Of a stretch of DNA of 64,000 nucleotides, positions 9,570 to 60,621 are shown piece after piece. The position numbers and the translations under genes were made by a program. The notes beneath the pieces were generated by a model that was not told where the DNA came from, did no database searches, and worked only from the letters and a program-made list of their open reading frames with translations. Every line of letters starts with the position of its first letter. Position 1 is the stretch's first letter. This DNA comes from an uncultured Oscillospiraceae bacterium (GTDB taxonomy: Bacteria > Bacillota > Clostridia > Peptostreptococcales > Anaerovoracaceae): contig CAYFQR010000002.1 in assembly GCA_964345365.1 (NCBI GenBank), forward strand, positions 33 to 64,032, written 5' to 3'.

Positions 9570-10403
9570 TTAAAAAAACATTGTTTTAGCTATTATCCCT
9601 ACACCGATAACAAATAAATAATAGGAAAAGTATTTCAGCTTATTGTTTTTCACGATTTTCAGCATGACCTTTATTGCAAAAAGCCCGCTGATAAATGAAA
9701 TGAGCACCCCGACAGCAACGGGTCCCGCTTCGCCCGGAGCCAAGCCCGCCTTAATTCCGTCGGGAAGTTCCAAAAGAAATGAACCCAATATTGTGGGAAT
9801 TGAAATTAGGAACACAAACCTAACAGCAAATTCTCTGTCAAGCTTGCAAATCAGCGAAGCAAACAACGTAGAACCCGACCTTGATATTCCGGGTATAATT
9901 GCAATACCTTGCACAATCCCGATAAATAAGGAATTTCTATAATTGAACTGTTCGATATTTCTATCACCGCCACCGTATTCCTCGGCAATCAAAAGCAAAA
10001 CGCCTGTAACGATGAACATCGCGGCAACAAAAGCGGGATAAGCATACATGCTTCCGAAAAGATCTCCGAAAAACAAGCCGATAATTGCGGTCGGCACACA
10101 AGAAACAAGTATCATCACTCCTAATTTTCTGGTTGGATTGTCTTCCAACCTCAAACCTTTGCCCGTACATAAGTCTTTTATTGTTAACACTAATTCTTTC
10201 AGCAATTCCCAAATATCTTTCCAAAATACGATGAAAACTGCAATCAGTGTTCCTAAATGCAGTAGAACGGCAAAGAACACCATGTTTTCTTCTTTGATTC
10301 CGAAATAGTTTTCAACTATTGCCAGATGTCCCGACGATGAAATCGGTAAAAACTCCGAAAGTCCCTGAACGAGTCCGAGAACCGTCGCCTCAAAATAACC
10401 CAT
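9570..10403 (-). CDS. uppP: Undecaprenyl-diphosphatase
   Basis: 277 aa polytopic membrane protein with the BacA signatures LSEFLPISSSGH and PGISRSGST. Confidence 0.9.
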   Translation of the reverse strand: MGYFEATVLGLVQGLSEFLPISSSGHLAIVENYFGIKEENMVFFAVLLHLGTLIAVFIVFWKDIWELLKELVLTIKDLCTGKGLRLEDNPTRKLGVMILVSCVPTAIIGLFFGDLFGSMYAYPAFVAAMFIVTGVLLLIAEEYGGGDRNIEQFNYRNSLFIGIVQGIAIIPGISRSGSTLFASLICKLDREFAVRFVFLISIPTILGSFLLELPDGIKAGLAPGEAGPVAVGVLISFISGLFAIKVMLKIVKNNKLKYFSYYLFVIGVGIIAKTMFF

Positions 10404-12991: not shown

Positions 12992-13702
12992 CTATCCCAC
13001 TATAACCGACATCAGCCATACAACCGGCGGTGTTATAATAATCGATGTAACATTAAATATTATAAGTGCCATAAGTATCAAAGTGCCTCTTTGATATATA
13101 GGATACCACCAGCTGTATTTTCTAAGGTCGAATATCTGTGTTATTATACCCCAGCCGTCAAGCGGAGGGCAAGGTATCAGGTTGAATATCATCAGTACGA
13201 GGTTAATATATACCGTAAAGAACACCATGTCGAACAGGATTCCGTTTGCCATTGAGTTCTTAATCATAATCCTTGCAATAATTCCGAAGAACACGGCAAT
13301 CAGTAAATTGATTGTAACTCCCGCTATAGATACGATGAACTCGTCACGCCTTTTGTTCTTATAAAAATACGGGTTTATTTCAACAGGCTTTCCCCAGCCG
13401 AATCCCGCAATGATTATAAAAACCATACCTATGGGATCAATATGTGTCATAGGACTTATAGACAGTCTCCCTTGCGACTTCGGTGTCGGGTCACCCAATA
13501 AATGCGAAGCATAGGCATGCCCCGCCTCATGTAGCGATATTCCTATAATTATACCCGGGAGCAGAACCAACTTAGCATACAGCCAGGCGCCCGGATTACT
13601 CATGTTAAGCAATCTTTCTACAATGAGGATTGCAATAAAAACCCAGAATATCGGGTCCATTCTCCTGAAAAATCTTTTTATATCGTCGATTATTTTTCTC
13701 AT
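12992..13702 (-). CDS. Site-2 protease family (peptidase M50) membrane metalloprotease
   Basis: 236 aa, multi-transmembrane. HEAGHAYASH (HExxH) and NLIPCPPLDG motifs. Confidence 0.8.
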   Translation of the reverse strand: MRKIIDDIKRFFRRMDPIFWVFIAILIVERLLNMSNPGAWLYAKLVLLPGIIIGISLHEAGHAYASHLLGDPTPKSQGRLSISPMTHIDPIGMVFIIIAGFGWGKPVEINPYFYKNKRRDEFIVSIAGVTINLLIAVFFGIIARIMIKNSMANGILFDMVFFTVYINLVLMIFNLIPCPPLDGWGIITQIFDLRKYSWWYPIYQRGTLILMALIIFNVTSIIITPPVVWLMSVIVG

Positions 13703-13778: not shown

Positions 13779-14510
13779 TCAATAATAAAAGCCTCTTTTT
13801 ACATCGGAATATTCCTCAACCCTCGCCAAATACGCCTCCATCGCCGCCTCCTCATGTGCGAGCTTGGGTTCCTCTATCCCGATGCTCCTTAAAAGCATCT
13901 CGGTAAACGGAGGATTAAGCACCAGAAGCGGCCCGATTAAGTATGTCCCGATGAAGTTGTTTTTCTTTATCCCCTCTTCCGTAATTTCGGGGTTAAAACC
14001 TGAGCCTCGTTTTGTCATAAAAGCATAACACTCTTCGACGCCGGTATAGCAGCTATGTGAAAACTGTGATTTATATCCGACAATAATTGTATCGCCGTAC
14101 TTACCGGAATATTCTCCGAGATAGAGCGAATTAAATCTCTTCATAAGGTCAAGCTTCGCATATGTATTGAAGATACCGAGACACCTGAAGATTTCCCCGT
14201 CCGCAGATTCAATCCTGTCACCGAAGACTTCGATTGCATTTCCCGTTATCAAAAAATGCACGCCCAGCTCTATGAGCTCTCTTATTCTCTCCACATATTT
14301 TCCGAGTTTGTCCGTCACAAGACGCTGTGATGACTCCGACATCGTGCCCATATATATTAAGTCGGGCAGATTATTTGCAAAATACGGTTCTTCGGTCAGG
14401 TAATCCTCAACAACCTCAATCTCGTCCGAACATTTTTTTAGATAGCTTATATTCTCAAGGTCACCGTAAAGATTGGCGACCTCCGGAAACAATATTTCTA
14501 TTTTAATCAT
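13779..14510 (-). CDS. GatD-like CobQ-type amidotransferase homologue lacking the catalytic Cys and His (pair A)
   Basis: Collinear with S. aureus GatD as I recall it (NLYGD..., GTY.xGP). The nucleophile elbow reads LITGNAIEVFG instead of LTICGGYQFLG, and GTYLIGP replaces GTYLHGP. The ATG at 14508-14510 follows GGAGGG and overlaps the upstream stop by 8 nt. Confidence 0.75.
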   Translation of the reverse strand: MIKIEILFPEVANLYGDLENISYLKKCSDEIEVVEDYLTEEPYFANNLPDLIYMGTMSESSQRLVTDKLGKYVERIRELIELGVHFLITGNAIEVFGDRIESADGEIFRCLGIFNTYAKLDLMKRFNSLYLGEYSGKYGDTIIVGYKSQFSHSCYTGVEECYAFMTKRGSGFNPEITEEGIKKNNFIGTYLIGPLLVLNPPFTEMLLRSIGIEEPKLAHEEAAMEAYLARVEEYSDVKRGFYY

Positions 14511-15882
14511 TGAAGTCGCCCTCCTCAAGCCTTTTTTTAACCATATCGGCAACCTTTATTCCGAGTTCCAAAGAATCCGTTCCATAGAGAACAAATATAT
14601 TATCATTCTCAAAAAACTTCAATCTGTCCGGTGCATCGATTTCCTTTTCGGCGAATGAAAGACGGCTTTCATCTACGCCTGCGAGCAAAAGTCTGAGCTT
14701 ATGGTCGTGCCTTCTCGGGCCGCAGAGCACGATATTCTTAATATTATCTCTGTTAAGAAACTCGAAATCGCAGTCATAAAGCCAGCAGGTATTTTCACTC
14801 CAGTGTTTCATATCTCCCTGACATGAGTTCATCAGAATTATTTCCTTGTCGCCCGGCATCCCTGAAATATAATCAAAAACCCTCGTCGTAGCGAAAGCAT
14901 TTTTTTCTTTTGCGAGCATTCTGAACAGCTTCTTATCCCCGAATTGTTCTTCATCAAATCTCGACTCGACCAAGTTTACCCTTTCAAAAAATCCTTTTAT
15001 TTCTCCTGAGCCGTATCCGAGTTCAAACAAAAGCGTTATTACGGAAACTTGGTTATATATATTAAATATGCTGTCGTTCAAAAGGCGGTAACAGCCCGTT
15101 TCTGACGGCGTGTTCACGTCAATCGACATTCTGTCGGTGTCCGGGTTTTCCGCCGTATAATCGTATTCCGGAGACTTAAATCCGCAATTATCACAATAAG
15201 CCTTGCCGATATGATTATACCTCAGATACTCGTATTTCAACCTGTGGCTGCAAACGGGACAAACTTGAAAGTCATTTATAAGATTAATGCATTCCGTAAT
15301 GTCATTCTCAAGCCTGTTAACACCGTAATATACCCTCTTGTTTAACGGTGCTATTCTCGAAGATATAAGGTCATCAGCATTTAGAATGAGTATCGAATCC
15401 TCGGGTATATTATTTGACAGGAAATCGGCGATATATTCAGGGTGAGCATTTCTCATTATCGAATCTCTGCTTAGGTTTGTTACCAATATATATTCGGGCT
15501 TCAAGAAAGGAAATACCCTCTTCGCCGACCTCTCGTCAACCTCAAAAACTCCTATCTCGTATTTTTCCGAGCCGAAAATGCTCATTCCCTGCACGAGTGC
15601 CGTGGCAATTCCCGTGTCAATATTGGAACCCGCCGAGTTATTCAGAACTATTTTATTGTCAACTCTTAAAATGTCGGTTATCAGATTGGAACAAGTAGTC
15701 TTGCCGTTTGTACCGGTAACCGCAATTATTTTTTTCGGCTTTTTTGCATAGCTTAAGAATGACGGGCAGATCTTAAGTGCGACAATACCCGGGAAATTTG
15801 TCCCGTTATGTTTGGTTATCCTAAGTGCGACAATCGCAAGCTTAGCCGCCCAAAGCGCTATGATATATCTGATAAAGCCCAT
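14503..15882 (-). CDS. MurT-like Mur-ligase-family protein with a DUF1727-type C-terminal domain (pair A)
   Basis: VTGTNGKTT P-loop, FEVDE, TNLSRD, a Cys4 ribbon (CPVC...17 aa...CDNC) and a C-terminal WLYDCDFEFL...KLRLLLAGV segment. The start is set at ATG 15880-15882 (GGAGG RBS, TAATG overlap with the upstream stop). The resulting N-terminus matches paralogue B. Confidence 0.8.
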   Translation of the reverse strand: MGFIRYIIALWAAKLAIVALRITKHNGTNFPGIVALKICPSFLSYAKKPKKIIAVTGTNGKTTCSNLITDILRVDNKIVLNNSAGSNIDTGIATALVQGMSIFGSEKYEIGVFEVDERSAKRVFPFLKPEYILVTNLSRDSIMRNAHPEYIADFLSNNIPEDSILILNADDLISSRIAPLNKRVYYGVNRLENDITECINLINDFQVCPVCSHRLKYEYLRYNHIGKAYCDNCGFKSPEYDYTAENPDTDRMSIDVNTPSETGCYRLLNDSIFNIYNQVSVITLLFELGYGSGEIKGFFERVNLVESRFDEEQFGDKKLFRMLAKEKNAFATTRVFDYISGMPGDKEIILMNSCQGDMKHWSENTCWLYDCDFEFLNRDNIKNIVLCGPRRHDHKLRLLLAGVDESRLSFAEKEIDAPDRLKFFENDNIFVLYGTDSLELGIKVADMVKKRLEEGDFND

Positions 15883-16934
15883 TATTTTATCGCCTCCGTT
15901 ATGGATTTGTATGTTCCCTGTTTCAGCTTCAAATCTTGACAAAGGTCTTGTGACGGGTAGCTGTTTCCTTCAATCAGAAGAGGCCCGTGGTCCTCGGAGA
16001 TGCATACGTCCCATCCGACATAACCCACCTGCGGCACCAGATTGGCTGCTTCCTGAATCATGCCGAGAACTTCGTCCCATTTCGGAATTCGGAAACCCTT
16101 CAGCACCGTTCCTGAACCGGGTACTCTCTCGAACACATTTCTGTCTTTATCGAAACCGTCGGAAATGATTTCTCCCGTCTTAAAATCATAAATTGTAGAA
16201 ATACCGCCGTTATTGAAATTATCCACCACAGAACCGGGTTTACCCATCCTTATCCCGCCGGAAACTATTACAGCCTTGCCGTCTTTTAATATTGTGATAA
16301 CCCTAATGGTGTTCACGGAATCGGCGCTTAAGAGATTCATCGTCTTGTCCTGTTTCACCACTTCCTCCGCAAGCGGCTTATCATTATCTACGAGGTACAT
16401 ATAAAGCTCCTCGGTATCCCAATCCGAAACTTTAATCTTTTCGATACCTCTTCCGCAGCTCTCATGAAGAGGCTTGACCATTATATATTCTTTGCCTACA
16501 AGAAAAGCTTTGAAGGCTTCAGCATCGCTTCCCTCGACTCTGTCCGTTTCCTTAAGTGCAGTCCCTTTGATGTCTCCGAACATCTTCCCTTTGCCGAGGA
16601 CTATCCAGTCGCGCTTCATAAAGCTGTTGAATTTTTTGTTAAAAATCGCCTTGTCCTCGAAATACTGTATATATCTCCTGTCGTTGAACCTTTTGAAGAT
16701 CTTGTTATTCTTGCCGAGTGTGAGGATTTCATCCCTCTCCTTATGGTTTTTATTGTACATCTCAAAAAACTCATAATCGACATGGCCCGAGCCGTACCTG
16801 AGCGTACAGTAAAATATGTCCCGACGTACCGCCCTCCACGATTTCCCCGTTTTAGCGGCTATCCTCTTTGCCGTTTCATCGAACCTCGACAAGTCTGTTG
16901 TTTTAAGTTTTTTAATGTAGAAGCTAAGATTCAT
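15882..16934 (-). CDS. ATP-grasp fold ligase (resembles the sugar-transfer-associated ATP-grasp / RimK-related amino-acid ligase family)
   Basis: 350 aa. The C-terminal half (IMVKPLHESCGRGI..., NFNNGGI, VGYVGWDVCISEDHGPLLIEGNSYP) is typical of an ATP-grasp fold. ATGA overlap with the upstream gene. Confidence 0.7.
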   Translation of the reverse strand: MNLSFYIKKLKTTDLSRFDETAKRIAAKTGKSWRAVRRDIFYCTLRYGSGHVDYEFFEMYNKNHKERDEILTLGKNNKIFKRFNDRRYIQYFEDKAIFNKKFNSFMKRDWIVLGKGKMFGDIKGTALKETDRVEGSDAEAFKAFLVGKEYIMVKPLHESCGRGIEKIKVSDWDTEELYMYLVDNDKPLAEEVVKQDKTMNLLSADSVNTIRVITILKDGKAVIVSGGIRMGKPGSVVDNFNNGGISTIYDFKTGEIISDGFDKDRNVFERVPGSGTVLKGFRIPKWDEVLGMIQEAANLVPQVGYVGWDVCISEDHGPLLIEGNSYPSQDLCQDLKLKQGTYKSITEAIK

Positions 16935-17647
16935 GTAAGTGTTCTCCTCAATTCGTTAAGTCTGTAATTATATGCCTCAATGATGTTTTTTTCAAACGCT
17001 ATCTCATCATTGAGTCCCATAAGTCTCAAGAGATATTTGACAAAATACGGGTTAAAGATGAGATATGGCCCGAGAGAGTACGTGGCAAAGAAATTATTGA
17101 CATGAATCCCCTCTCTCCCGGTTTCCGGATTCATCCCGATTCCCGTTTCAATTTTCAAAAAATAATCCTTAAACTCACCGTAGCTGAAGCTGAATTGGCT
17201 CCGGTGCCCGAGCAGCGTCATGTCTTCAAACGTCGCTATATACTGCGAATTATGCCTCGGCAAATCCATATTCCTCACGGAATAAAAATCAAACAACCCG
17301 AGTGCGGGCACTTCTTTTATCAAATTGCCCGACAAGTCATTTTCTTTTATTAGATTCCCGAATATTTCGATTGCATTGCCCGTTACCAAAAATATGGTGC
17401 CGGCAGCTATCGCCGCCTCTATCTCGCCTCGATACCCCCTCAAAAGCTCTATCGTCTTTTCCTGATGTCTTTCCGTCATGCATCCGATATAGACCATATC
17501 GGCATCTGCTGTGAGGAACCTCGGCTTTTCGAGATGATGTGTCATGATAACCTCAAGCTCGTCGCTGCTTTTTTTGAGATATTCGATATTGTAACATTCA
17601 CCGTAGATATTGGTAAACTCAGGATAAATAAATTCAATCTTTTTCAA
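16931..17647 (-). CDS. GatD-like CobQ-type amidotransferase homologue lacking the catalytic Cys and His (pair B)
   Basis: 238 aa. Has FLVTGNAIEIFG at the nucleophile elbow and ATYSLGP at the His position. TTG start in a TTGA overlap with the upstream stop, preceded by an AAGGGGG RBS. Confidence 0.75.
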   Translation of the reverse strand: MKKIEFIYPEFTNIYGECYNIEYLKKSSDELEVIMTHHLEKPRFLTADADMVYIGCMTERHQEKTIELLRGYRGEIEAAIAAGTIFLVTGNAIEIFGNLIKENDLSGNLIKEVPALGLFDFYSVRNMDLPRHNSQYIATFEDMTLLGHRSQFSFSYGEFKDYFLKIETGIGMNPETGREGIHVNNFFATYSLGPYLIFNPYFVKYLLRLMGLNDEIAFEKNIIEAYNYRLNELRRTLT

Positions 17648-19002
17648 CTGTTTGCCCCCTTCGCATATTCTACGATGCTGTCACGCATATTTTTCGCCTT
17701 GGTAACATAATCAATTTCAAAAAGCACATATACTTTATCTATTCCTTCCCTGTCCACATGCTGCGGAATATCAGCCTCCTCCTCAACCGCCACAATCTTT
17801 TCCTCTGGCACTCCTGCGAGGAGCAGCCTCAGCTTATGATTGAGAAACATGTGTCCGCCCACCACAATCTTCTTGATATGCGGGCGATTCAAAAACTCAT
17901 AGTCGGTTTCATAAAGCCATGAAATCGTTTCGGTCGGATGATGTCTATCCTGCACCTCGTCCATAAGAAGAACCACATTTTTGTCGGACGGCTCGTCTGC
18001 CATATATTCGAATACCGTAGCAGCCGCCGAAACATTCTGCGATTTAGCCGCATAAGCAAAATATTCTATCCCGTTATACGTTACCGACGACTCTCTGATA
18101 TCCGTTATCTTCTGCCTTTGCATAAACTCCGAAATAACACCCATCTCATAGCCAAGTTCCAGAAAAAGAGCCGCTGCGGTAAGCACGTTGAAGCAGTTGA
18201 ACATCGTATCCGAAATCAGAGGCACGGTTTCTCCGTTCAATGTCATCGTTTTATTTAAGAGGTCTATATTTTTTGCGAGATATTTGCTCTCGGGAGTCTT
18301 GAAATCACAGCTCTCGCAGTGATATTTTCCTATATGTCTGTAGAGTCTGTAATCGTATTTTATCTTGCCGTCGCATACGGGACAGACTGAAATATCCCTC
18401 GAAATATTCGGCAGCGGTCTGAAACTGTCATCATCGATACCGAAAAATACCCTTTCAATATTTTTGGCAAGCCCGATTGAAATCGGGTCATTGGCATTTA
18501 ATATCGCCTTTGCGCCTTTTTTTGACATCCTCATGCACTTTTCCATGTGATTGAAGATGTTCTCGGGATGCCCGTTTCGTCTTAAACTGTCCTTGCATAT
18601 ATTGGTTACAACTATGTAATCCGGCTTAAGCTTCACCATCTCCGTATCCATCGAAAGCTCATCCGCCTCAAGCACCGAGCAGTCCACCTGCGGCTTGTTG
18701 AAAATATTCACTCCCCTGATGAGATTAACGGCAAACCCCGCCATGAGATTTGCACCCCAGTCGTTAAAAGAAGTCGACAGTCCCCGCTCGCTCAAAAAAT
18801 CGTTCACAAGCACGGATGTCGTAGTCTTGCCGTTTGTGCCTGTAATGGCTATCGTGAGCTTCGGTTTAGAAACAATTTCTAAAAAATCCGGACAAATCTT
18901 ACACGCCAGGAGCCCCGGCATATCCGTCTTCGGTGTGCCTCTGAGCTTATAGAATAACATCATCATTTTCGCTCCCCACAGAGCGATAAAAAATCTGAGC
19001 AT
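17644..19002 (-). CDS. MurT-like Mur-ligase-family protein with a DUF1727-type C-terminal domain (pair B)
   Basis: 452 aa. ITGTNGKTT, LEADE, TNICKD, a Cys4 ribbon (CPVC...17 aa...CESC) and SWLYETDYEFL...KLRLLLAGV. GGGAG RBS. It starts 10 nt after the cls stop. Confidence 0.8.
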   Translation of the reverse strand: MLRFFIALWGAKMMMLFYKLRGTPKTDMPGLLACKICPDFLEIVSKPKLTIAITGTNGKTTTSVLVNDFLSERGLSTSFNDWGANLMAGFAVNLIRGVNIFNKPQVDCSVLEADELSMDTEMVKLKPDYIVVTNICKDSLRRNGHPENIFNHMEKCMRMSKKGAKAILNANDPISIGLAKNIERVFFGIDDDSFRPLPNISRDISVCPVCDGKIKYDYRLYRHIGKYHCESCDFKTPESKYLAKNIDLLNKTMTLNGETVPLISDTMFNCFNVLTAAALFLELGYEMGVISEFMQRQKITDIRESSVTYNGIEYFAYAAKSQNVSAAATVFEYMADEPSDKNVVLLMDEVQDRHHPTETISWLYETDYEFLNRPHIKKIVVGGHMFLNHKLRLLLAGVPEEKIVAVEEEADIPQHVDREGIDKVYVLFEIDYVTKAKNMRDSIVEYAKGANS

Positions 19003-19012
19003 ATTGCACTCC

Positions 19013-20488
19013 CTAAAGTATCTCGGTGAGAAGCCTTGAGATACTCTCCTTGAATCTTACAAAAATCGGACGTTTATTATAATCTTCCATTGTCAGTTCA
19101 CGGCTGTTCTTCATATCTTCCTCAAAGGATTTTACCATTTGCTCCGTAAATTCCTTATCGAAGATAAATGCATTTGTTTCAAAATTCAGCTTAAACGACC
19201 TTATGTCGAAGTTACATGAACCTATGGACGTGACCTCCCCGTCCGCAAATATCGCTTTTGCATGCAGGAAACCTCCGTCATAGATGAACACCCTGCATCC
19301 GTCCTTGAGCAGCTCTCCCACATTGGAAAGGGTCGCCCAATATACGAAAATATGGTCAGGCTTATTCGGTATCATTATGTTGACTTTAACTCCCGATTGC
19401 GATGCCATCTTGCATGACTCTATAATCGATGCGTCCGGAACGAAATAAGGAGATTGAATATATACGGAATCCGTAGCAGCGGTAATCATCTTCATGAAAC
19501 CGCGCTTGATTTCCTGCTTTGGAGCTTCAGGCCCGCATGAAACGATTTGCAGTCCCATATCGCCGGCAACCTCGGTATTGATACGCCCCGCATCAAGCAA
19601 ATCGAGCTTCTCCTTAGTTACGAAACGCCAATCGAGAATGAATCTCGTGTTAAGCTCGTTCACTCCCGTTCCCCTGATTCTCACGTGTGAATCACGCCAA
19701 TGTCCGAATTTCGGTGCCAAATCACAATATTCGTTGCCGATATTATATCCGCCCGTATACCCTATTTTGTTGTCGACCACCAGAATCTTTCTGTGGTTTC
19801 GGTAGTTGAGGTTAAGCCCTATCTTTATCCCCATCCTTGCCAATCTCGGAGGGAAAAAATATGCCACCTTGCCGCCTGCTTTAATATATTCTCTGAGCAC
19901 TAAGTTATTCAAACCTCTTGAGCCGAGAGAGTCTACGAGCAGCCGAACTTCCACGCCTTCTCTCGCTTTCTCCGTCAGCGCCGCTATGAAACGCTTGGCT
20001 GTCTTATCATTTTTGATTATAAAATATTCCGCATTAACGGACGTTTCGGCATTTCTTATATCTTCAAGCATCCTGTCAAACAGCTCATTCCCGTCCACGA
20101 TGAGTTCTATATCATTCGTTTCGCTATATATGGCATTGCCGTAAACCTGATTCAGTATTACCAAATCCCTCCACTTGTATGCGGAGTAGTTATCAAGCCT
20201 GAGTTTCCCTTCCTCCAGCTCTTTAATCTGATAATCGAGATAGCCTCTTATAACGCTTTCCTCGTTATCATAGAGTTTGTTTATCTTGATTCGGGTAAGG
20301 TTCTGATTAAAAATCAAGTATAGTATGAACCCCAACACCGGAACAAACGCCAAAACCATAATCCACGCCAAAGTAGCAGTCGATGTTTTTCTCTCGAAGA
20401 ATATGACTGCCACGATTAATATGAAGTTTATTCCATATACCACCATTGTAGAGGATATATAGCCAAGCGGCGTTTCCATTTCAAACAT
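19013..20488 (-). CDS. cls: Cardiolipin synthase (PLD family)
   Basis: 491 aa. Two N-terminal transmembrane helices and two HKD motifs (NHRKILVVDN..., FLHAKAIFADG...). Confidence 0.9.
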   Translation of the reverse strand: MFEMETPLGYISSTMVVYGINFILIVAVIFFERKTSTATLAWIMVLAFVPVLGFILYLIFNQNLTRIKINKLYDNEESVIRGYLDYQIKELEEGKLRLDNYSAYKWRDLVILNQVYGNAIYSETNDIELIVDGNELFDRMLEDIRNAETSVNAEYFIIKNDKTAKRFIAALTEKAREGVEVRLLVDSLGSRGLNNLVLREYIKAGGKVAYFFPPRLARMGIKIGLNLNYRNHRKILVVDNKIGYTGGYNIGNEYCDLAPKFGHWRDSHVRIRGTGVNELNTRFILDWRFVTKEKLDLLDAGRINTEVAGDMGLQIVSCGPEAPKQEIKRGFMKMITAATDSVYIQSPYFVPDASIIESCKMASQSGVKVNIMIPNKPDHIFVYWATLSNVGELLKDGCRVFIYDGGFLHAKAIFADGEVTSIGSCNFDIRSFKLNFETNAFIFDKEFTEQMVKSFEEDMKNSRELTMEDYNKRPIFVRFKESISRLLTEIL

Positions 20489-50315: not shown

Positions 50316-53300
50316 TTACTTCTTAAAATACTCGACCGCGGCTCTGAACAGCTGCATGTCATAATTGCCCGGCACATTCATATAAAGGCCGTTTCCGATT
50401 CTCTCGGAGTGTCCCATTTTGCCGAATACCCTGCCGTCCGGCGACAACAAGCCTTCCACAGCCAAGTCCGAGCCGTTAGGGTTGAATTGAACATCGAATG
50501 TGGCATTCCCCTCTAAATCCACATACTGTGTCATAATCTGCCCTCTGCCGATGAGTTCTCTCTTAAGCTTCTCGGGTGCTATGAATCTTCCTTCGCCGTG
50601 TGAAATAGGAACGGAATATATTTCGCCTACTTCACAGTATTTGAGCCATGGGGAATTCACCGAAGCTATCCTCGTCCTTACTATCTTCGACTGGTGGCGT
50701 GCTATCCTGTTAAATGTTAAAGTCGCACATTCCTCATCGGTGTCGATTATCTTACCGTACGGTACGAGCCCGAGCTTGATGAGGGCTTGGAAGCCGTTGC
50801 ATATTCCCGCCATGAGACCGTCCCTATTGTCTAAAAGGTCAGTCACAGCCTCTTTAATTTCCTCGTTTCTGAAGAATGCCGTTATAAACTTGCCGGAACC
50901 CGACGGTTCGTCTCCTCCCGAAAATCCGCCCGGAATAAATATCATCTGACTGCTTCTTATCTCTTTTGCAAAATCCTCCACGGATTTTTCCACCATTGCG
51001 GAATTTAGGTTCTTTATTATGAATATCTCCGTATCCGCTCCTGCCGCCCTGAATGCCTTGGCGGAATCATATTCGCAATTTGTACCCGGGAATACCGGAA
51101 TCAGAACCTTAGGCGTTTCAACCCTTCTCACAGGACTTGCCATCGGTCTTGCTCGGAACGAAATATTCGAAACTTCGTCTGACGGCGTTTCAATGTTACA
51201 TGTAAACACAGGCTCCAGTTTATCCTCATATATCTTTTCAAGTTCGGCGATTTCGATTTTTTCACCGGCCCTTGAAATATATGATTCGCTTGTCGTCATA
51301 CCGAGTAGCGTGCCGAAGAACGCGGCATTTTCAAGTACTGAATACCTGATTTCCTCCGCCGCTTCCAAAATGAACGAGCCGTAAGAATAGCCGAATATTT
51401 CTTCAAGTGAAATGTCGTTGGCATAAATGAAGCCATGTCCGTTACCGATACACATCTTGAATACCGCTTCCGCGATTCCTCCGTATGTCGGAGTGTAGAG
51501 CGCATTTATGTTTTGATTTTTCTTTTGTTCTCCTATGAATCTGAAAATTTCCTTTAAGGAATCTCTGTCCGGAAGTCCTCGCTCATCATATCTCGGCTTT
51601 AACAGATATACCCTTGAATCCGATTTTTTGAACTCCGGCGAAATTACGTCGGTTAGCCTGCCCGTAGTAACGGCAAATGATATAAGTGTAGGAGGAACGT
51701 GAATGTCCTCGAATGTTCCCGACATCGAGTCCTTGCCGCCGATTGCAGCGAAGCCCATATCCATCTGAGCGTCGAGTGCGCCGAGAAGCGCCGCGAAAGG
51801 AACTCCCCATTTACGCGGGTCTTTTCCGAGTTTCTCAAAATATTCCTGGAACGAAAGATATACATCCTTAAGCTCCGCTCCGTGTGCTGCCAGCTTACAT
51901 ATAGATTCGATTACCGCAAGATATGCTCCGTTAAAAGGATTCCTCTCGGTGATAAACGGGTTATATCCGTATGACATGAAGCTTACGGTGTCCGTATCTT
52001 CCTTCTCAACGGATATTTTGTTAACCATTGCCTGTACAGGCGTCCTCTGATATTTGCCGCCGAAAGGCATGAGCACCGAGCCTGCACCTATCGTGGAGTC
52101 AAACCTCTCGGAGAGCCCGCGCTTAGAGCAAACATTGAGGTCTCCTACAAGCTCGGCATACCCTGCCTTAAAGTCGTCCGGAACATCTTTTTCATATTCT
52201 GAAATCTCGCCGACGTTTACGCTCATGTGCTTTTCCGCACCGTTTGAGTCAAGGAATTCTCTCGAAATGTCCACTATAGCCCTGCCGTTCCAATTAAGAA
52301 CGAGCCTCGGTTCTTCCGTCACAACGGCAACCTCCGTCGCTTCCAGGTTCTCCGTTTCGGCAAGCTCGATGAATCTTTCTTTATCTTCAGCCTCAATAAC
52401 GACAGCCATTCTCTCCTGAGATTCGGATATGGCAAGCTCAGTTCCGTCAAGTCCCTCATATTTCTTTGGAACTTTGTTGAGGTCAACTATAAGTCCGTCG
52501 GCAAGCTCGCCTATCGCAACGGAAACACCGCCCGCGCCGAAGTCGTTGCAGCGTTTTATAAGCGATGATGCCTCATGATTCCTGAAAAGCCTCTGCAGCT
52601 TTCTTTCTTCGGGCGCATTGCCTTTCTGAACCTCCGCCCCGCAGGATTCGAGTGATTCCACACTGTGTGACTTAGAGGAGCCTGTCGCGCCGCCGAGTCC
52701 GTCTCTTCCCGTCCTCCCGCCGAGGAGTATAACAATATCTCCCGGAGCGGGAACCTCGCGCCTTACGTTCCTTTGAGGAGCCGCAGCGATAACCGCGCCG
52801 ACTTCCATTCTCTTTGCTATGTATCCCGGATGATAGATTTCCTCAACCTGTCCGGTTGCGAGCCCTATCTGATTGCCGTAAGAGCTGTAGCCGTTTGCGG
52901 CGGTTTTGACAATCGTCCTCTGAGGAAGCTTGCCCGGCAATGTTTCACTTACCGGAACAAGCGGGTTGCCGGCACCCGTAACTCTCATTGCCGCATAAAC
53001 ATAACTTCTTCCCGAAAGAGGGTCTCTTATTGCGCCGCCTACGCATGTTGCCGCACCGCCGAAGGGCTCGATTTCGGTAGGATGATTGTGAGTTTCGTTC
53101 TTGAAAAGCAGAAGCCAATCTTCGTCTTTGTCCCCAACTCTTACCTTTATCTTTACCGTACAAGCATTTATCTCGTCGCTTTCATCAAGCTTATCTAAAA
53201 GTCCGCGCTTTTTAAGAGATTTCGCGGCAATAGTTCCGATATCCATAAGAGATATCGGTTTCGTTCTGCCCAGGTCTTTTCTTATGTTGATATATCTCTC

Positions 53301-54032
53301 ATACGCTTCTTGGATATAATCGTCATCAAAGAGCACACCGTCTATTATCGTATTAAAAGTGGTATGTCTGCAGTGATCCGACCAATAAGTGTCTATCACC
53401 TTTATTTCCGTGACGGTAGGATTTCTTCTTTCAGAAGCAAAATATTCTCTGCAAAAGATTAAATCCGGCAAGTCCATAGCAAGTCCGGTCTCTTTAATCA
53501 TCTCTTCAAGTTCTTCATCGGAACTGTCGATGAAACCGTCAAGAACCTCAACATCCGAAGGTATTTCATACTTCATCTCGAGAGAATTCGGAACTTCAAG
53601 AGACGCTTCTCTTGATTCAACAGGATTTATGAGATATGTTTTTATTTCACATAATTCATTTTCTGTCAACTCGCCCGAAAGAAGATAAACTCTTGCCGAC
53701 CTTACCTCAGGTCTTTCGCCTTTTGATATGAGCTGAATACATTCGGCGGCGGAAGAAGCTCTCTGGTCAAACTGTCCGGGCAGATATTCGACTGCGAATA
53801 CGTAGTCCGCTTCAGGCAGCTCGGTCATGGTTTTGTCGAGCTGCGGCTCAGAGAACACCGTTCTTACGGCGTAGTCAAACAGCTCGCTGCTTATCCCTTC
53901 ACAATCATATCGGTTAAGAAGTCTGAGCCTTTTTAAGCCGCTTATTCCGAGCAGCTCTTTTATGTCAGCTAAAACTCCTCTCGCCTCATTGTCAAGTCCC
54001 TGTTTTTTTTCAACATAAATTCTGAATACCAT
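50316..54032 (-). CDS. purL: Phosphoribosylformylglycinamidine synthase, large single-chain form (PurS/PurL/PurQ fused)
   Basis: 1238 aa. The C-terminal glutaminase is intact: nucleophile GICNGFQ and MGHSER. Confidence 0.93.
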   Translation of the reverse strand: MVFRIYVEKKQGLDNEARGVLADIKELLGISGLKRLRLLNRYDCEGISSELFDYAVRTVFSEPQLDKTMTELPEADYVFAVEYLPGQFDQRASSAAECIQLISKGERPEVRSARVYLLSGELTENELCEIKTYLINPVESREASLEVPNSLEMKYEIPSDVEVLDGFIDSSDEELEEMIKETGLAMDLPDLIFCREYFASERRNPTVTEIKVIDTYWSDHCRHTTFNTIIDGVLFDDDYIQEAYERYINIRKDLGRTKPISLMDIGTIAAKSLKKRGLLDKLDESDEINACTVKIKVRVGDKDEDWLLLFKNETHNHPTEIEPFGGAATCVGGAIRDPLSGRSYVYAAMRVTGAGNPLVPVSETLPGKLPQRTIVKTAANGYSSYGNQIGLATGQVEEIYHPGYIAKRMEVGAVIAAAPQRNVRREVPAPGDIVILLGGRTGRDGLGGATGSSKSHSVESLESCGAEVQKGNAPEERKLQRLFRNHEASSLIKRCNDFGAGGVSVAIGELADGLIVDLNKVPKKYEGLDGTELAISESQERMAVVIEAEDKERFIELAETENLEATEVAVVTEEPRLVLNWNGRAIVDISREFLDSNGAEKHMSVNVGEISEYEKDVPDDFKAGYAELVGDLNVCSKRGLSERFDSTIGAGSVLMPFGGKYQRTPVQAMVNKISVEKEDTDTVSFMSYGYNPFITERNPFNGAYLAVIESICKLAAHGAELKDVYLSFQEYFEKLGKDPRKWGVPFAALLGALDAQMDMGFAAIGGKDSMSGTFEDIHVPPTLISFAVTTGRLTDVISPEFKKSDSRVYLLKPRYDERGLPDRDSLKEIFRFIGEQKKNQNINALYTPTYGGIAEAVFKMCIGNGHGFIYANDISLEEIFGYSYGSFILEAAEEIRYSVLENAAFFGTLLGMTTSESYISRAGEKIEIAELEKIYEDKLEPVFTCNIETPSDEVSNISFRARPMASPVRRVETPKVLIPVFPGTNCEYDSAKAFRAAGADTEIFIIKNLNSAMVEKSVEDFAKEIRSSQMIFIPGGFSGGDEPSGSGKFITAFFRNEEIKEAVTDLLDNRDGLMAGICNGFQALIKLGLVPYGKIIDTDEECATLTFNRIARHQSKIVRTRIASVNSPWLKYCEVGEIYSVPISHGEGRFIAPEKLKRELIGRGQIMTQYVDLEGNATFDVQFNPNGSDLAVEGLLSPDGRVFGKMGHSERIGNGLYMNVPGNYDMQLFRAAVEYFKK

Positions 54033-59196: not shown

Positions 59197-60621
59197 CTAT
59201 TCCTTTCCGCTCCAGCAATATGTGCACAGCTTGCACTTGTCAATACCGATGGCTTCTGTTACACCCTCAAGCGTCTGAAATTCAATCGAGTCGAAATTAA
59301 AACGCTCACAGATTGCCTTTCTCAGATTCTTGCCGCGCTCCGTCTTTGAATCGGAGTATTCGTCTATGTGCCCAAGCCCCTCCTCGCCCTCAAGTTCGAT
59401 TATTATTCTCCTCGACAGAAGCTCCGTCTCGTTTTTTGAGGCTGAAAAATTGAGAAACTTACATACGTACATTATAGGCGGGCAGGCAGAACGCATGTGT
59501 ACCTCATCGGCGCCGTTCATATACAAAAAATCAACGGTTTCTTTCAACTGAGTTCCGCGGACTATCGAATCATCCACAAACATAAGTTTTTTGCCTTTTA
59601 TGAGCTCCGGAACAGGTATCAACTTCATTCTCGCAATCTTGTTCCTCTCGCTCTGATTTGCCGGCATGAAGCTTCTCGGCCATGTAGGAGTATATTTGAT
59701 GAACGGCCTTGAAAACTTGATTCCGGTCTCATTCGAGTAACCGATTGCATGAGGTGTCCCCGAATCCGGAACCCCGCAAACATTATCAAGTCTTGGAGCT
59801 AAACCGCTCTCTATGTCATAACGTGCCATGATTTCGCCGTTCCTGTAGCGCATCTGCTCGACATTGATTCCTTCATAATTGGAATTCGGATAACCGTAAT
59901 AAGACCAGAGAAATGCGCATATTCTCATTTCATCCCCCGGTTCTTTCAGTACCTTCAGTTCATCCGCACTTATCTCGACGATTTCTCCGGGGCCTAAGTC
60001 TCTCACATCCTCATATCCCAACTTTGTATATGCAAAAGATTCCAGCGAAACACAATACCCGCACTGACTTCTTCCTATTGAAACCGGCAATCTGCCCAGT
60101 TTGTCTCTTGAAGCGATCAGTCTGCCGTCGTCGAGCATTATTAAAATCGACATCGTGCCGTCAACAAGCTCCTGAACGTACTCGATTCCTTCGACAATTT
60201 TTTCTTTGCGGTTGATTATTGCCGCTACAAGCTCCGTAGTATTCACCTTACCGCCTGTCATCGCACTGAAGTGACCCGAGTTACCCGAAAGATATTCGTC
60301 AATAAGATTTTTTTCATTCCTGATAAGTCCGACAGTGCATATGGCATAAGTCCCGAACCTCGACCTTATTAAAAGAGGCTGAGGGTCTGAATCGCTTATG
60401 CAGCCGATAACCGAGGTGCCGCGCATCTCATTAAAAATATTCTCAAACTTCGTTCTGAAAGGAGAGTTCTCAATATTATGAATCTCCCTCTGAAGCCCTA
60501 TTTCAGGGTCATAAGCCGCCAAGCCTCCCCTTCTCGTTCCAAGATGCGAATGATAGTCCACCCCGAAAAACACATCGGAAAGAGCATCATACTTGGATAC
60601 TACTCCGAAAAATCCACCCAT
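59197..60621 (-). CDS. purF: Amidophosphoribosyltransferase homologue lacking the N-terminal nucleophile Cys
   Basis: The PRTase half is canonical ([17 protein letters not shown]). The N-terminus reads M-G-G-F-F-G-V instead of (M)CG(I/V)xG. ATG at 60619-60621 follows AAAGGAAAAG. Confidence 0.8.

Follow-up and report, generated by a model that had tools for sequence, protein, structure and literature searches.

Both GatD-like proteins encoded between positions 13779 and 19002 of a 64-kb stretch of DNA from an uncultured Oscillospiraceae bacterium (contig CAYFQR010000002.1; the whole stretch of 64,000 nucleotides is called the window in the following) lack the canonical glutaminase residues. 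From its sequence, this region is predicted to encode two MurT/GatD-type heterodimeric Mur-ligase complexes, referred to as pairs A and B, together with one ATP-grasp ligase. The glutaminase triad of the Staphylococcus aureus enzyme is a composite of GatD Cys94, GatD His189 and MurT Asp349 (PMC6113224), and the original prediction, made from the sequence alone, had already claimed the loss of the Cys and the His. Here, we found that the third triad residue, MurT Asp349, is replaced as well. According to the alignments, the composite triad is replaced on both subunits, with Cys94 exchanged for Gly, His189 for Ile or Leu and Asp349 for Asn or Thr. As a tentative reading, to which we give slightly less than an even chance, the pairs could be glutamine-independent, ATP-dependent amidoligases that use ammonia (NH3) on peptidoglycan-type precursors and retain the GatD-like subunit as an obligatory, remodelled partner.

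The sequence motifs named in the original prediction, LITGNAIEVFG and GTYLIGP in GatD-like protein A and LVTGNAIEIFG and ATYSLGP in GatD-like protein B, are both present in the respective protein, and the four codons it had assigned to the critical positions (GGA, ATC, GGC and CTC; Table 1) are exact. Its hand alignment, placing Gly90 at the Cys position and Ile192 or Leu192 at the His position, was borne out by HMMER, MAFFT and, in case of protein A, the predicted structure. In phmmer alignments with PDB chains, the G of TGNAIE stands under the C of TICGGY and the I or L under the H of YLHGP, and MAFFT alignments including 120 and then 240 homologues gave the same columns for Cys94 and His189; neither phmmer, MAFFT nor the structure match placed a Cys/His pair at the catalytic positions. 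In a phmmer search of all PDB chains, the sole real matches were the GatD proteins of S. aureus, Streptococcus pneumoniae (6fqb_E) and Streptococcus pyogenes (9sq9_C). Protein A matched GatD chains with E-values of 2e-12 to 3e-6 (2e-12 to 5n9m_A/6gs2_A of S. aureus, 5e-9 to 6fqb_E) and protein B with 3e-7 to S. aureus GatD and 0.012 to 6fqb_E. The two paralogues share 44 of their first 100 residues, close to the 45% estimated before, and 94 of 232 overall.

An AlphaFold model of GatD-like protein A, computed from a 21-sequence alignment (predicted local distance difference test score, pLDDT, 88.3; predicted template modelling score, pTM, 0.89), shows a strand at 85-89 followed directly by a helix at 90-96, i.e., the geometry of a nucleophile elbow, as well as the GatD-specific C-terminal helix (220-235). 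The nine best Foldseek matches of this model in the PDB were all GatD chains, with template modelling (TM) scores of 0.73-0.82 and S. aureus GatD 5n9m_A as best match (0.82); HisH and Pdx2 followed at about 0.5-0.6. A class I, GATase_3-type fold with the C-terminal helix specific for GatD was found accordingly in this model, and the Pfam GATase_3 profile gave 26.7 bits for protein A, just under the cutoff of 27, and 32.1 bits for protein B. The NCBIfam equivalogs of GatD (NF052463, cutoff 450; NF045636, cutoff 400) were failed by both, with 59.8/49.9 bits for A and 45.3/30.6 bits for B.

The replacements extend beyond the triad. Both oxyanion-hole glycines are exchanged, Gly60 for Thr (A) or Cys (B) and Gly95 for Asn in 240/240 homologues, and in both proteins Gln98 is replaced by Glu and the ENHGGR loop by (K/R)SQFS. 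An invariant Arg (Arg125 in A, Arg131 in B) is located in the Arg128 loop, aligned with Arg128 in one alignment and two residues upstream in another. Outside the triad, several GatD motifs are kept, namely the N-x-Y-G-D/E capping loop, G-x-G-x-N-x-E...EG and Y-x-x-G-P.

A scan of GTDB species genomes revealed 393 species with a relative; loci were listed for the best 80 of these 393. For the MurT side, orthologues were taken from 83 loci, and among them the position of Asp349 is occupied by Asn in 74/74 A-type and by Thr in 8/8 B-type proteins, the segment of MurT-like protein B in the window reading T-E-T-I-S-W. The two preceding residues, Gly-Arg in S. aureus, are Ser in 81/82 and Glu in 82/82 (position 348: 74/74 A-type and 8/8 B-type). 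The Mur-ligase machinery is retained next to these exchanges: the GTNGKTT P-loop and the Mg-binding Glu108 of the central domain are invariant in all 74 A-type and 8 B-type orthologues and in the window proteins, and both MurT-like proteins carry a Cys4 zinc-ribbon (CPVC...C..C), whose first two Cys (Cys202, Cys205) are invariant in the orthologues, all four being so in the invariant-residue check. The MurT_C domain (DUF1727, PF08353) is recognized with E = 3e-21 and 3e-19. Invariant as well are the acceptor-carboxylate motif G-(S/A)-N85 and the GatD-contacting Trp352 (82/82 orthologues; Trp352 in 74/74 of the A-type) and Asp/Glu355. The DNAAD motif, for which recognition of the stem-peptide Lys has been proposed, is not kept and reads D-x-x-H-W in family A and D-R-(N/H)-H-P in family B, and the NCBIfam MurT equivalog cutoff of 800 was failed by both proteins (A, 186.7/157.4 bits; B, 146.4/127.4 bits). 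Ligase machinery and subunit interface are intact by these features, and the MurT-like proteins look like active Mur-type ligases with a GatD-like partner whose site has been rebuilt from both sides. Four representative clusters (P0249, P0274, P0300 and P0329) even constitute natural MurT-GatD fusions of 698-758 amino acids, in which an N-terminal MurT-like part with GTNGKT is joined to a C-terminal, triad-less GatD-like part with [TC]-[GS]-N-A-x-E; as such fusions show, both subunits are obligate partners.

The replacements in the GatD-like proteins are highly conserved. Among the 120 best homologues of protein A (52-100% identical), the positions of Cys94, Gly95 and Gln98 hold Gly, Asn and Glu in 120/120 each, that of His189 holds Ile in 117 and Leu in 3, and the Thr, Gly, Asn and Glu of TGNAIE were each present in all 120. 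All 120 best homologues of protein B feature Gly, Asn, Glu and Leu at the four positions, respectively, and T-G-N-A-x-E as motif; in both families together, Ile or Leu takes the place of His189 in 240/240. A profile search of 1.84 billion representatives at 50% identity yielded, at E <= 1e-30, 273 clusters, of which the best 150 were inspected. The motif [T/S]-G-N-A-x-[E/D] together with a hydrophobic residue in place of the His was seen in nearly every one of these 150; as exceptions, a single sequence had a Cys close to the elbow and another retained His at its position, but none had both. The columns invariant between families A and B all lie within the former active-site segments. Compared with the closest orthologous locus (L001), both GatD-like genes show a nonsynonymous divergence (dN) of 0.19 and a synonymous divergence (dS) of about 2 for GatD-A and beyond saturation for GatD-B, which corresponds to a dN/dS of roughly 0.1 or less, with dS at or past saturation and a ratio for GatD-B that is not computable. 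Simple decay is contradicted by the former active-site segments, which are better conserved than any other part of the protein, and by the new invariant polar residues on both subunits; the triad-less state of GatD is long-lived and selected.

Beside these shared columns, each family has residues of its own. Family A is characterized by the invariant pocket residues Thr60, Lys147 and His152 (numbering of the GatD alignment) and family B by Cys60, His146, Arg147 and Phe152. The only well-conserved His of family A is His152, which is Phe in family B, and a search for a conserved Cys along the whole of family A found none. In family B, Cys56, at the position of GatD Gly60, was found in 120/120 homologues, His132 in 120/120 and His148 in 119/120; family A has Thr or Ser at the Cys56 position, and Ser, Pro, Ala and Thr are commonest there in the wider clade (150 representatives; the columns of this table are offset by one). 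The view put forward in the original prediction, that both proteins are pseudo-glutaminases under purifying selection, holds well for pair A, with no conserved Cys, the full triad replaced and invariant replacements. For pair B, it needs to be qualified, as Cys56 leaves some thiol chemistry possible.

Mutational studies of the S. aureus enzyme give hints on what a MurT/GatD complex can do in this state. The GatD variant C94G lost glutamine-dependent amidation of lipid II and kept NH3-dependent amidation at pH 8.5, and MurT alone was inactive with any donor (PMC3266927); GatD is therefore needed even when it makes no ammonia. MurT D349N was severely impaired in vitro with glutamine (PMC6113224), and GatD C94A, H189A and R128A showed no glutaminase activity, Gly60 and Gly95 forming the oxyanion hole (PMC5871853). 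The Cys94 mutants C94G, C94S and C94A are all inactive with glutamine. Both natural pairs resemble these variants in having Gly at 94, and pair A in having Asn at 349; the mutants, however, are single changes in a glutamine-dependent background, whereas the natural clade features many further co-varying changes around the site. In S. pneumoniae MurT, N85 contacts the acceptor carboxylate and a Trp (Trp352 in S. aureus, Trp360 in S. pneumoniae) is required for holding GatD (PMC6085368). In the solved complexes, a large open space lies between the GatD site and the ATP site of MurT, and the sole connection of the GatD site to the MurT active site is a proposed ammonia channel (PMC6113224; PMC6085368).

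With the solved MurT/GatD complexes (6GS2/6H5E/5N9M, 6FQB and 9SQ9), the window pairs share the two-gene operon with overlapping genes, on the MurT side the P-loop, Glu108, the zinc-ribbon, MurT_C, G-x-N85 and Trp352, and on the GatD side the GATase_3 fold with the extra C-terminal helix (TM 0.82), the capping loop and the Y-x-x-G-P loop. They differ by the absence of any composite-triad residue, of Gly60/Gly95, Gln98, the ENHGGR loop and DNAAD and by the new invariant Ser347-Glu348 in the MurT-like proteins of the clade. Moreover, the pairs are just 25-31% identical to the known complexes, duplicated, tied to an ATP-grasp ligase and far below the NCBIfam cutoffs. Mitochondrial carbamoyl-phosphate synthetase I (CPS I) and NH3-dependent NAD synthetase likewise use free ammonia with a dead or missing glutaminase part. 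Here too, the synthetase chemistry is kept and the nucleophile lost, and the dead domain of CPS I is retained structurally; folds and pathways are different, however, and the dead subunit of the window pairs is a polypeptide of its own, whose remodelled site is strongly conserved and for which NH3 as donor is an inference. Archaea with pseudomurein, i.e., certain methanogens, also possess divergent relatives of MurT distinct from canonical lipid II isoglutaminyl synthases, and archaeal species with MurT-like proteins only have no GatD homologue (PMC11915815), in contrast to the proteins described here, which are always paired with or fused to a GatD-like protein.

On this background, the MurT-like proteins A and B would activate, by phosphorylation, a carboxylate on a lipid-linked precursor of the peptidoglycan type. 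Pair A is universal in the clade, and its most likely target would be the alpha-carboxyl of D-iso-Glu, leading to its amidation, and pair B could amidate a second carboxylate, e.g., that of the diamino acid or one on a residue attached by the ATP-grasp ligase; such an arrangement would parallel the trio of Asl, AsnH and MurT-GatD in Enterococcus faecium. The acyl-phosphate would be resolved by a nitrogen nucleophile taken up directly from the cytoplasm, NH3/NH4+ being the likeliest. The GatD-like subunit would itself make no ammonia and would be retained because MurT needs a GatD-like partner. Its former active site, facing MurT, could have been remodelled to a conserved polar entry site composed of GatD Asn95 and Glu98 and MurT Ser347-Glu348, and it is plausible that the acidic and polar residues of this interface capture ammonium where the old ammonia path opens and remove its proton. 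We favour NH3/NH4+ as nucleophile because the C94G mutant proves the chemistry to be feasible, the habitat is rich in ammonia, the new invariant acidic and polar interface residues could handle ammonium and a second amidotransferase of the window, a PurF-like protein, is devoid of its nucleophile.

This PurF-like amidophosphoribosyltransferase (59197-60621, minus strand) begins with M-G-G-F-F-G, and its Gly2 aligns with the N-terminal catalytic Cys1 of Bacillus subtilis PurF (1ao0_A). The R-G-Q and N-G glutaminase motifs are changed too, the TIGR01134 model was matched with 174 bits at a cutoff of 350, and all of the 120 best homologues (70-100% identical; metagenome-assembled genomes, MAGs, of Anaerovoracaceae, Ruminococcaceae and other Clostridia) start with MGGFFG. 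Surrounding open reading frames have the sizes of purE, purC, purM, purN and purD and adjoin a phosphoribosylformylglycinamidine (FGAM) synthase gene, forming a pur operon. The Cys-less PurF, which is unrelated to the GatD-like proteins, points to a lineage habit of direct NH3 use.

Several points weigh against free ammonia as donor. For every member of the clade, the nucleophile and likewise the substrate and the product are predictions, and the invariant columns of the former site and the new polar residues agree with a pocket for a ligand no less well than with an entry site for ammonia. The segments of the former site also face MurT, and their conservation alone cannot separate a role as pocket from one as interface. 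One amidation requires neither two pairs nor an ATP-grasp ligase in the same operon, and the use of NH3 by S. aureus C94G was seen at pH 8.5 only (PMC3266927). In family B, the invariant Cys56 lies beside the old site, so that some thiol chemistry might be possible for pair B. Finally, the FGAM synthase of the window (50316-54032, minus strand), a single-chain PurL/PurQ fusion matching TIGR01857 with 1865 bits, keeps the glutaminase Cys1078 (A-G-I-C-N-G-F-Q) as well as His and Glu (G-H-S-E); as its triad is kept, glutamine-dependent amidotransfer has therefore not been given up generally. Of the options offered by the original prediction, a structural subunit, a pocket for another amine and free NH3 are inseparable by sequence tools; published mutant data favour NH3, as does the Cys-less PurF.

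The option of another amine is unlikely in our view: the remodelled GatD pocket could bind and present, e.g., a diamine or an amino acid, including D-amino acids, which the MurT-like subunit would ligate to the activated carboxylate, e.g., as substitution of the D-Glu alpha-carboxyl, as a 2-to-4 type bridge or as decoration of a residue added by the ATP-grasp ligase. D-amino-acid cross-bridges in Gram-positive walls are made by ATP-grasp ligases (PMC2922099), and the conserved partnership with such a peptide ligase suggests stepwise peptide building. In line with a ligand pocket, the segments of the former glutamine site are the most conserved ones and contain the new invariant Asn95, Glu98 and the Arg in the Arg128 loop, the invariant Ser-Glu of MurT faces the GatD site, and A and B possess distinct invariant pocket residues, as expected for different specificities, and different replacements of the MurT DNAAD motif. 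Substituted D-Glu or B-type walls occur in Microbacteriaceae, Erysipelotrichaceae, Eubacterium limosum and Negativicutes; none of these taxa, however, is represented among the loci of the best 80 of 393 species or the named proteins. Furthermore, the conserved segments double as interface to MurT, a possible reason for their conservation, and a bulky amine would need a route other than the proposed ammonia channel (PMC6113224; PMC6085368). In its extended form, which we see as rather unlikely, the dead pocket would be repurposed for a non-ammonia amine, and the pairs and the ATP-grasp protein would be wall ligases of gut Clostridia and Coriobacteriia, acting by substitution or bridging on the D-Glu alpha-carboxyl or another stem carboxylate, or builders of a branched, cyanophycin-like peptide, with different specificities of A and B. 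Distinctly unlikely in our view is a substrate outside peptidoglycan, such as a secondary wall polymer, a lipid head group or a cyanophycin-like poly-acidic peptide, whose backbone the ATP-grasp ligase would build and whose side-chain carboxylates the Mur-type ligases would modify, the likeness to MurT/GatD being one of chemistry only. Cyanophycin synthetase indeed combines an ATP-grasp module with a Mur-ligase-like module, the scores remain far below the NCBIfam cutoffs (MurT, 187 and 146 against 800; GatD, 60 and 45 against 450), the ATP-grasp protein belongs to the 'sugar-transfer associated' family PF14397 and a cardiolipin synthase gene is often adjacent (22 loci). Nevertheless, the subunits of lipid II isoglutaminyl synthase are by far the nearest relatives, the hallmarks of MurT (zinc-ribbon insertion, MurT_C, G-x-N85 and Trp352) are retained, the surrounding genes serve housekeeping functions of the envelope (UppP; murC and glmU in L081-83) and no glycosyltransferase or polymer-export genes adjoin the cluster.

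That glutamine is still hydrolysed by relocated residues, mainly in pair B, where Cys56 is placed on the oxyanion strand and His132 and His148 are near in sequence, is very unlikely. The conservation of these three residues within family B and the many GatD motifs kept outside the triad would suit this idea, but family A has no conserved Cys and its His152 is Phe in B, other residues are commonest at the Cys56 position of the wider clade, neither oxyanion glycine (Gly60, Gly95) is left and pair B has lost MurT Asp349 as well. An artefact or decay, i.e., misalignment, sequencing error or pseudogenes, has a negligible probability and was rejected: alignments and structure model agree, the reading frames are intact and coupled, dN is far below dS, and the substitutions are invariant across 240 homologues, nearly so in 150 divergent representatives, with a relative in 393 species.

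The five tightly packed genes of the cluster are all encoded on the minus strand (Table 1). From MurT-B to GatD-A, the junctions overlap by 4, 4, 1 and 8 nucleotides (nt; TTGA, ATGA, TAATG and ATGATTAA), the ATP-grasp gene thereby sharing 4 nt with the end of GatD-B and 1 nt with the beginning of MurT-A; since neighbouring genes overlap, the five genes form one translationally coupled operon. A scan for promoters and terminators at the operon boundaries gave no decisive signal. The longest open reading frame of MurT-like A begins at TTG 15942, upstream of ATG 15882, and the numbering of GatD-like A assumes ATG 14510; here the longest frame begins at TTG 14552, yet homologues begin with MIKIE/MKIE. 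The window holds just these two GatD-like and two MurT-like genes.

Table 1. Coordinates of the gene cluster, its key residues and adjoining genes (positions of the window; aa, amino acids).
Feature	Position	Strand	Remarks
MurT-like ligase B, 452 aa	17644-19002	-	Pfam Mur_ligase_M + MurT_C; E = 1e-38 to S. aureus MurT 7q8e/6gs2_B
P-loop GTNGKTT of MurT-like B	18820-18840	-	
Zn-ribbon CPVC...CESC of MurT-like B	18307-18384	-	
Thr359 of MurT-like B	17926-17928	-	At S. aureus MurT Asp349 position; phmmer + MAFFT alignments
Glu358 of MurT-like B	17929-17931	-	Invariant, precedes Thr359
GatD-like protein B, 238 aa	16931-17647	-	TTG start overlapping MurT-B stop by 4 nt
TGNAIE motif of GatD-like B	17366-17383	-	In place of nucleophile elbow TICGGYQ
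Gly90 (GGC) of GatD-like B	17378-17380	-	At Cys94 position
Leu192 (CTC) of GatD-like B	17072-17074	-	At His189 position
Cys56 of GatD-like B	17480-17482	-	At oxyanion-strand position (S. aureus Gly60)
ATP-grasp ligase, 350 aa	15882-16934	-	Pfam PF14397 ATPgrasp_ST, E = 3e-47
MurT-like ligase A, 459 aa	14503-15882	-	From ATG at 15882; Pfam Mur_ligase_M + MurT_C; E = 2e-49 to S. aureus MurT
P-loop of MurT-like A	15694-15714	-	
Zn-ribbon of MurT-like A	15184-15261	-	
Asn364 of MurT-like A	14791-14793	-	At S. aureus MurT Asp349 position, in S-E-N-T-C-W
Glu363 of MurT-like A	14794-14796	-	Invariant
GatD-like protein A, 243 aa	13779-14510	-	ATG 14510 overlapping MurT-A stop by 8 nt
TGNAIE motif of GatD-like A	14229-14246	-	
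Gly90 (GGA) of GatD-like A	14241-14243	-	At Cys94 position
Ile192 (ATC) of GatD-like A	13935-13937	-	At His189 position
Cardiolipin synthase	19013-20488	-	Directly upstream of cluster, 10 nt gap
M50-like membrane metalloprotease	12992-13702	-	Downstream of cluster
Undecaprenyl-diphosphatase UppP	9570-10403	-	

Members of the best 80 of the 393 species belong to Anaerovoracaceae (Brotomerdimonas butyrica, Lentihominibacter hominis, Emergencia), Peptostreptococcaceae, Lachnospiraceae, Oscillospiraceae and Ruminococcus MAGs, and their contigs originate from gut and rumen samples; more distant members of the clade are named Fastidiosipila and Enorma (Coriobacteriia). The MurT/GatD operon was reported to be widespread in Clostridia by homology surveys (PMC6085368), and the triad-less clade itself is old and widespread in Clostridia, with outliers in Coriobacteriia. 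GatD-A is present in 83/83 loci and MurT-A lies beside it wherever the contig extends upstream (77/83). An ATP-grasp gene of the same Pfam family is found directly upstream of MurT-A in 45/83 loci, a cardiolipin synthase gene upstream in 22 and an M50-like peptidase gene downstream in 25. Loci of Lachnospiraceae and Oscillospiraceae mostly contain pair A alone, and pair B occurs only in a subset of the genomes that also hold pair A and the ATP-grasp gene.

The full five-gene module was found in L001, L003-5, L047 and L081-83, L005 belonging to Brotomerdimonas butyrica and L047 to Lentihominibacter hominis NSJ-24. In the closest locus, L001 (an Anaerovoracaceae MAG), the whole arrangement is common to the window, and its co-directional ATP-grasp gene encodes a protein 90% identical to that of the window (dN 0.06). 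In every other five-gene module except the window itself, the ATP-grasp gene is located on the opposite strand between the pairs, with about 36% identity in most, and the ATP-grasp proteins encoded directly upstream of pair A in the 45 loci are just 28-32% identical to that of the window. Several ATP-grasp subtypes thus seem to accompany MurT/GatD-like pairs. The window protein matches PF14397 with 161.4 bits (cutoff 31.4) over profile positions 3-262 of 278, and a sequence search against the PDB retrieved no solved relative.

Neighbouring core genes at the clade loci include MiaB, GpsA, SpoIVA, Nth and UppP; in L081-83, which represent a common human-gut species, murC, a GlmU-like gene and prs are found instead. 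PADLOC models gave no match to the five cluster proteins at E <= 0.01, and an anti-phage defence system was rejected on the basis of this result and the core-genome context. The M50-like metalloprotease displays weak similarity to HExxH proteases involved in the maturation of ribosomally synthesized and post-translationally modified peptides (RiPPs). Seven loci (L002, L003, L010, L016, L017, L043 and L065) are part of bins named Bacteroidaceae, Bacteroides stercoris, Alistipes communis, Flexilinea and Alloprevotella. The neighbours of L010, L016 and L017 match the Anaerovoracaceae arrangement, and the other four are comparable by their MurT/GatD-like genes alone; as the cluster is of the Clostridia type, all seven are probably binning errors in public assemblies. 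Within the window, every 2-kb bin has a negative guanine-cytosine (GC) skew (cumulative -5.4), and nearly all long open reading frames lie on the minus strand. Because of this uniformly negative skew and strand bias, the window is placed on a single replichore, its core genes (FtsK, Der, SMC, ValS, FolC and the pur operon) being strongly co-oriented.

Current databases list members of the clade as 'hypothetical protein', 'glutamine amidotransferase', 'CobQ-like glutamine amidotransferase family enzyme' or 'lipid II isoglutaminyl synthase (glutamine-hydrolysing)'. The last of these names is very probably wrong as to the nitrogen donor, and no curated family covers the triad-less pairs. Literature searches on MurT/GatD paralogues, MurT-like and GatD-like proteins, MurT together with ATP-grasp ligases and alpha-carboxyl D-Glu ligases found no description of a triad-less GatD, the term 'MurT-like' being used solely for the archaeal proteins of species lacking a GatD homologue, and a search on the wall chemistry of Anaerovoracaceae found nothing usable.

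MurT/GatD, an essential drug target, provides the textbook route by which Gram-positive walls obtain D-iso-glutamine. The glutamine-hydrolysing mechanism is closed to the clade described here, which is found in at least 393 species, among them abundant anaerobes of the human gut and the rumen, and represents a natural experiment in the remodelling, rather than the loss, of a glutaminase site. If free ammonia is used, wall amidation in these organisms would be tied to the supply of ammonia and not of glutamine, and purine synthesis may likewise depend on ammonia via the Cys-less PurF. If another amine is used, the pairs would constitute new wall-modifying enzymes giving rise to new muropeptide structures relevant to immune sensing by the host. 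On either reading, the clade needs a family model of its own and a corrected annotation.

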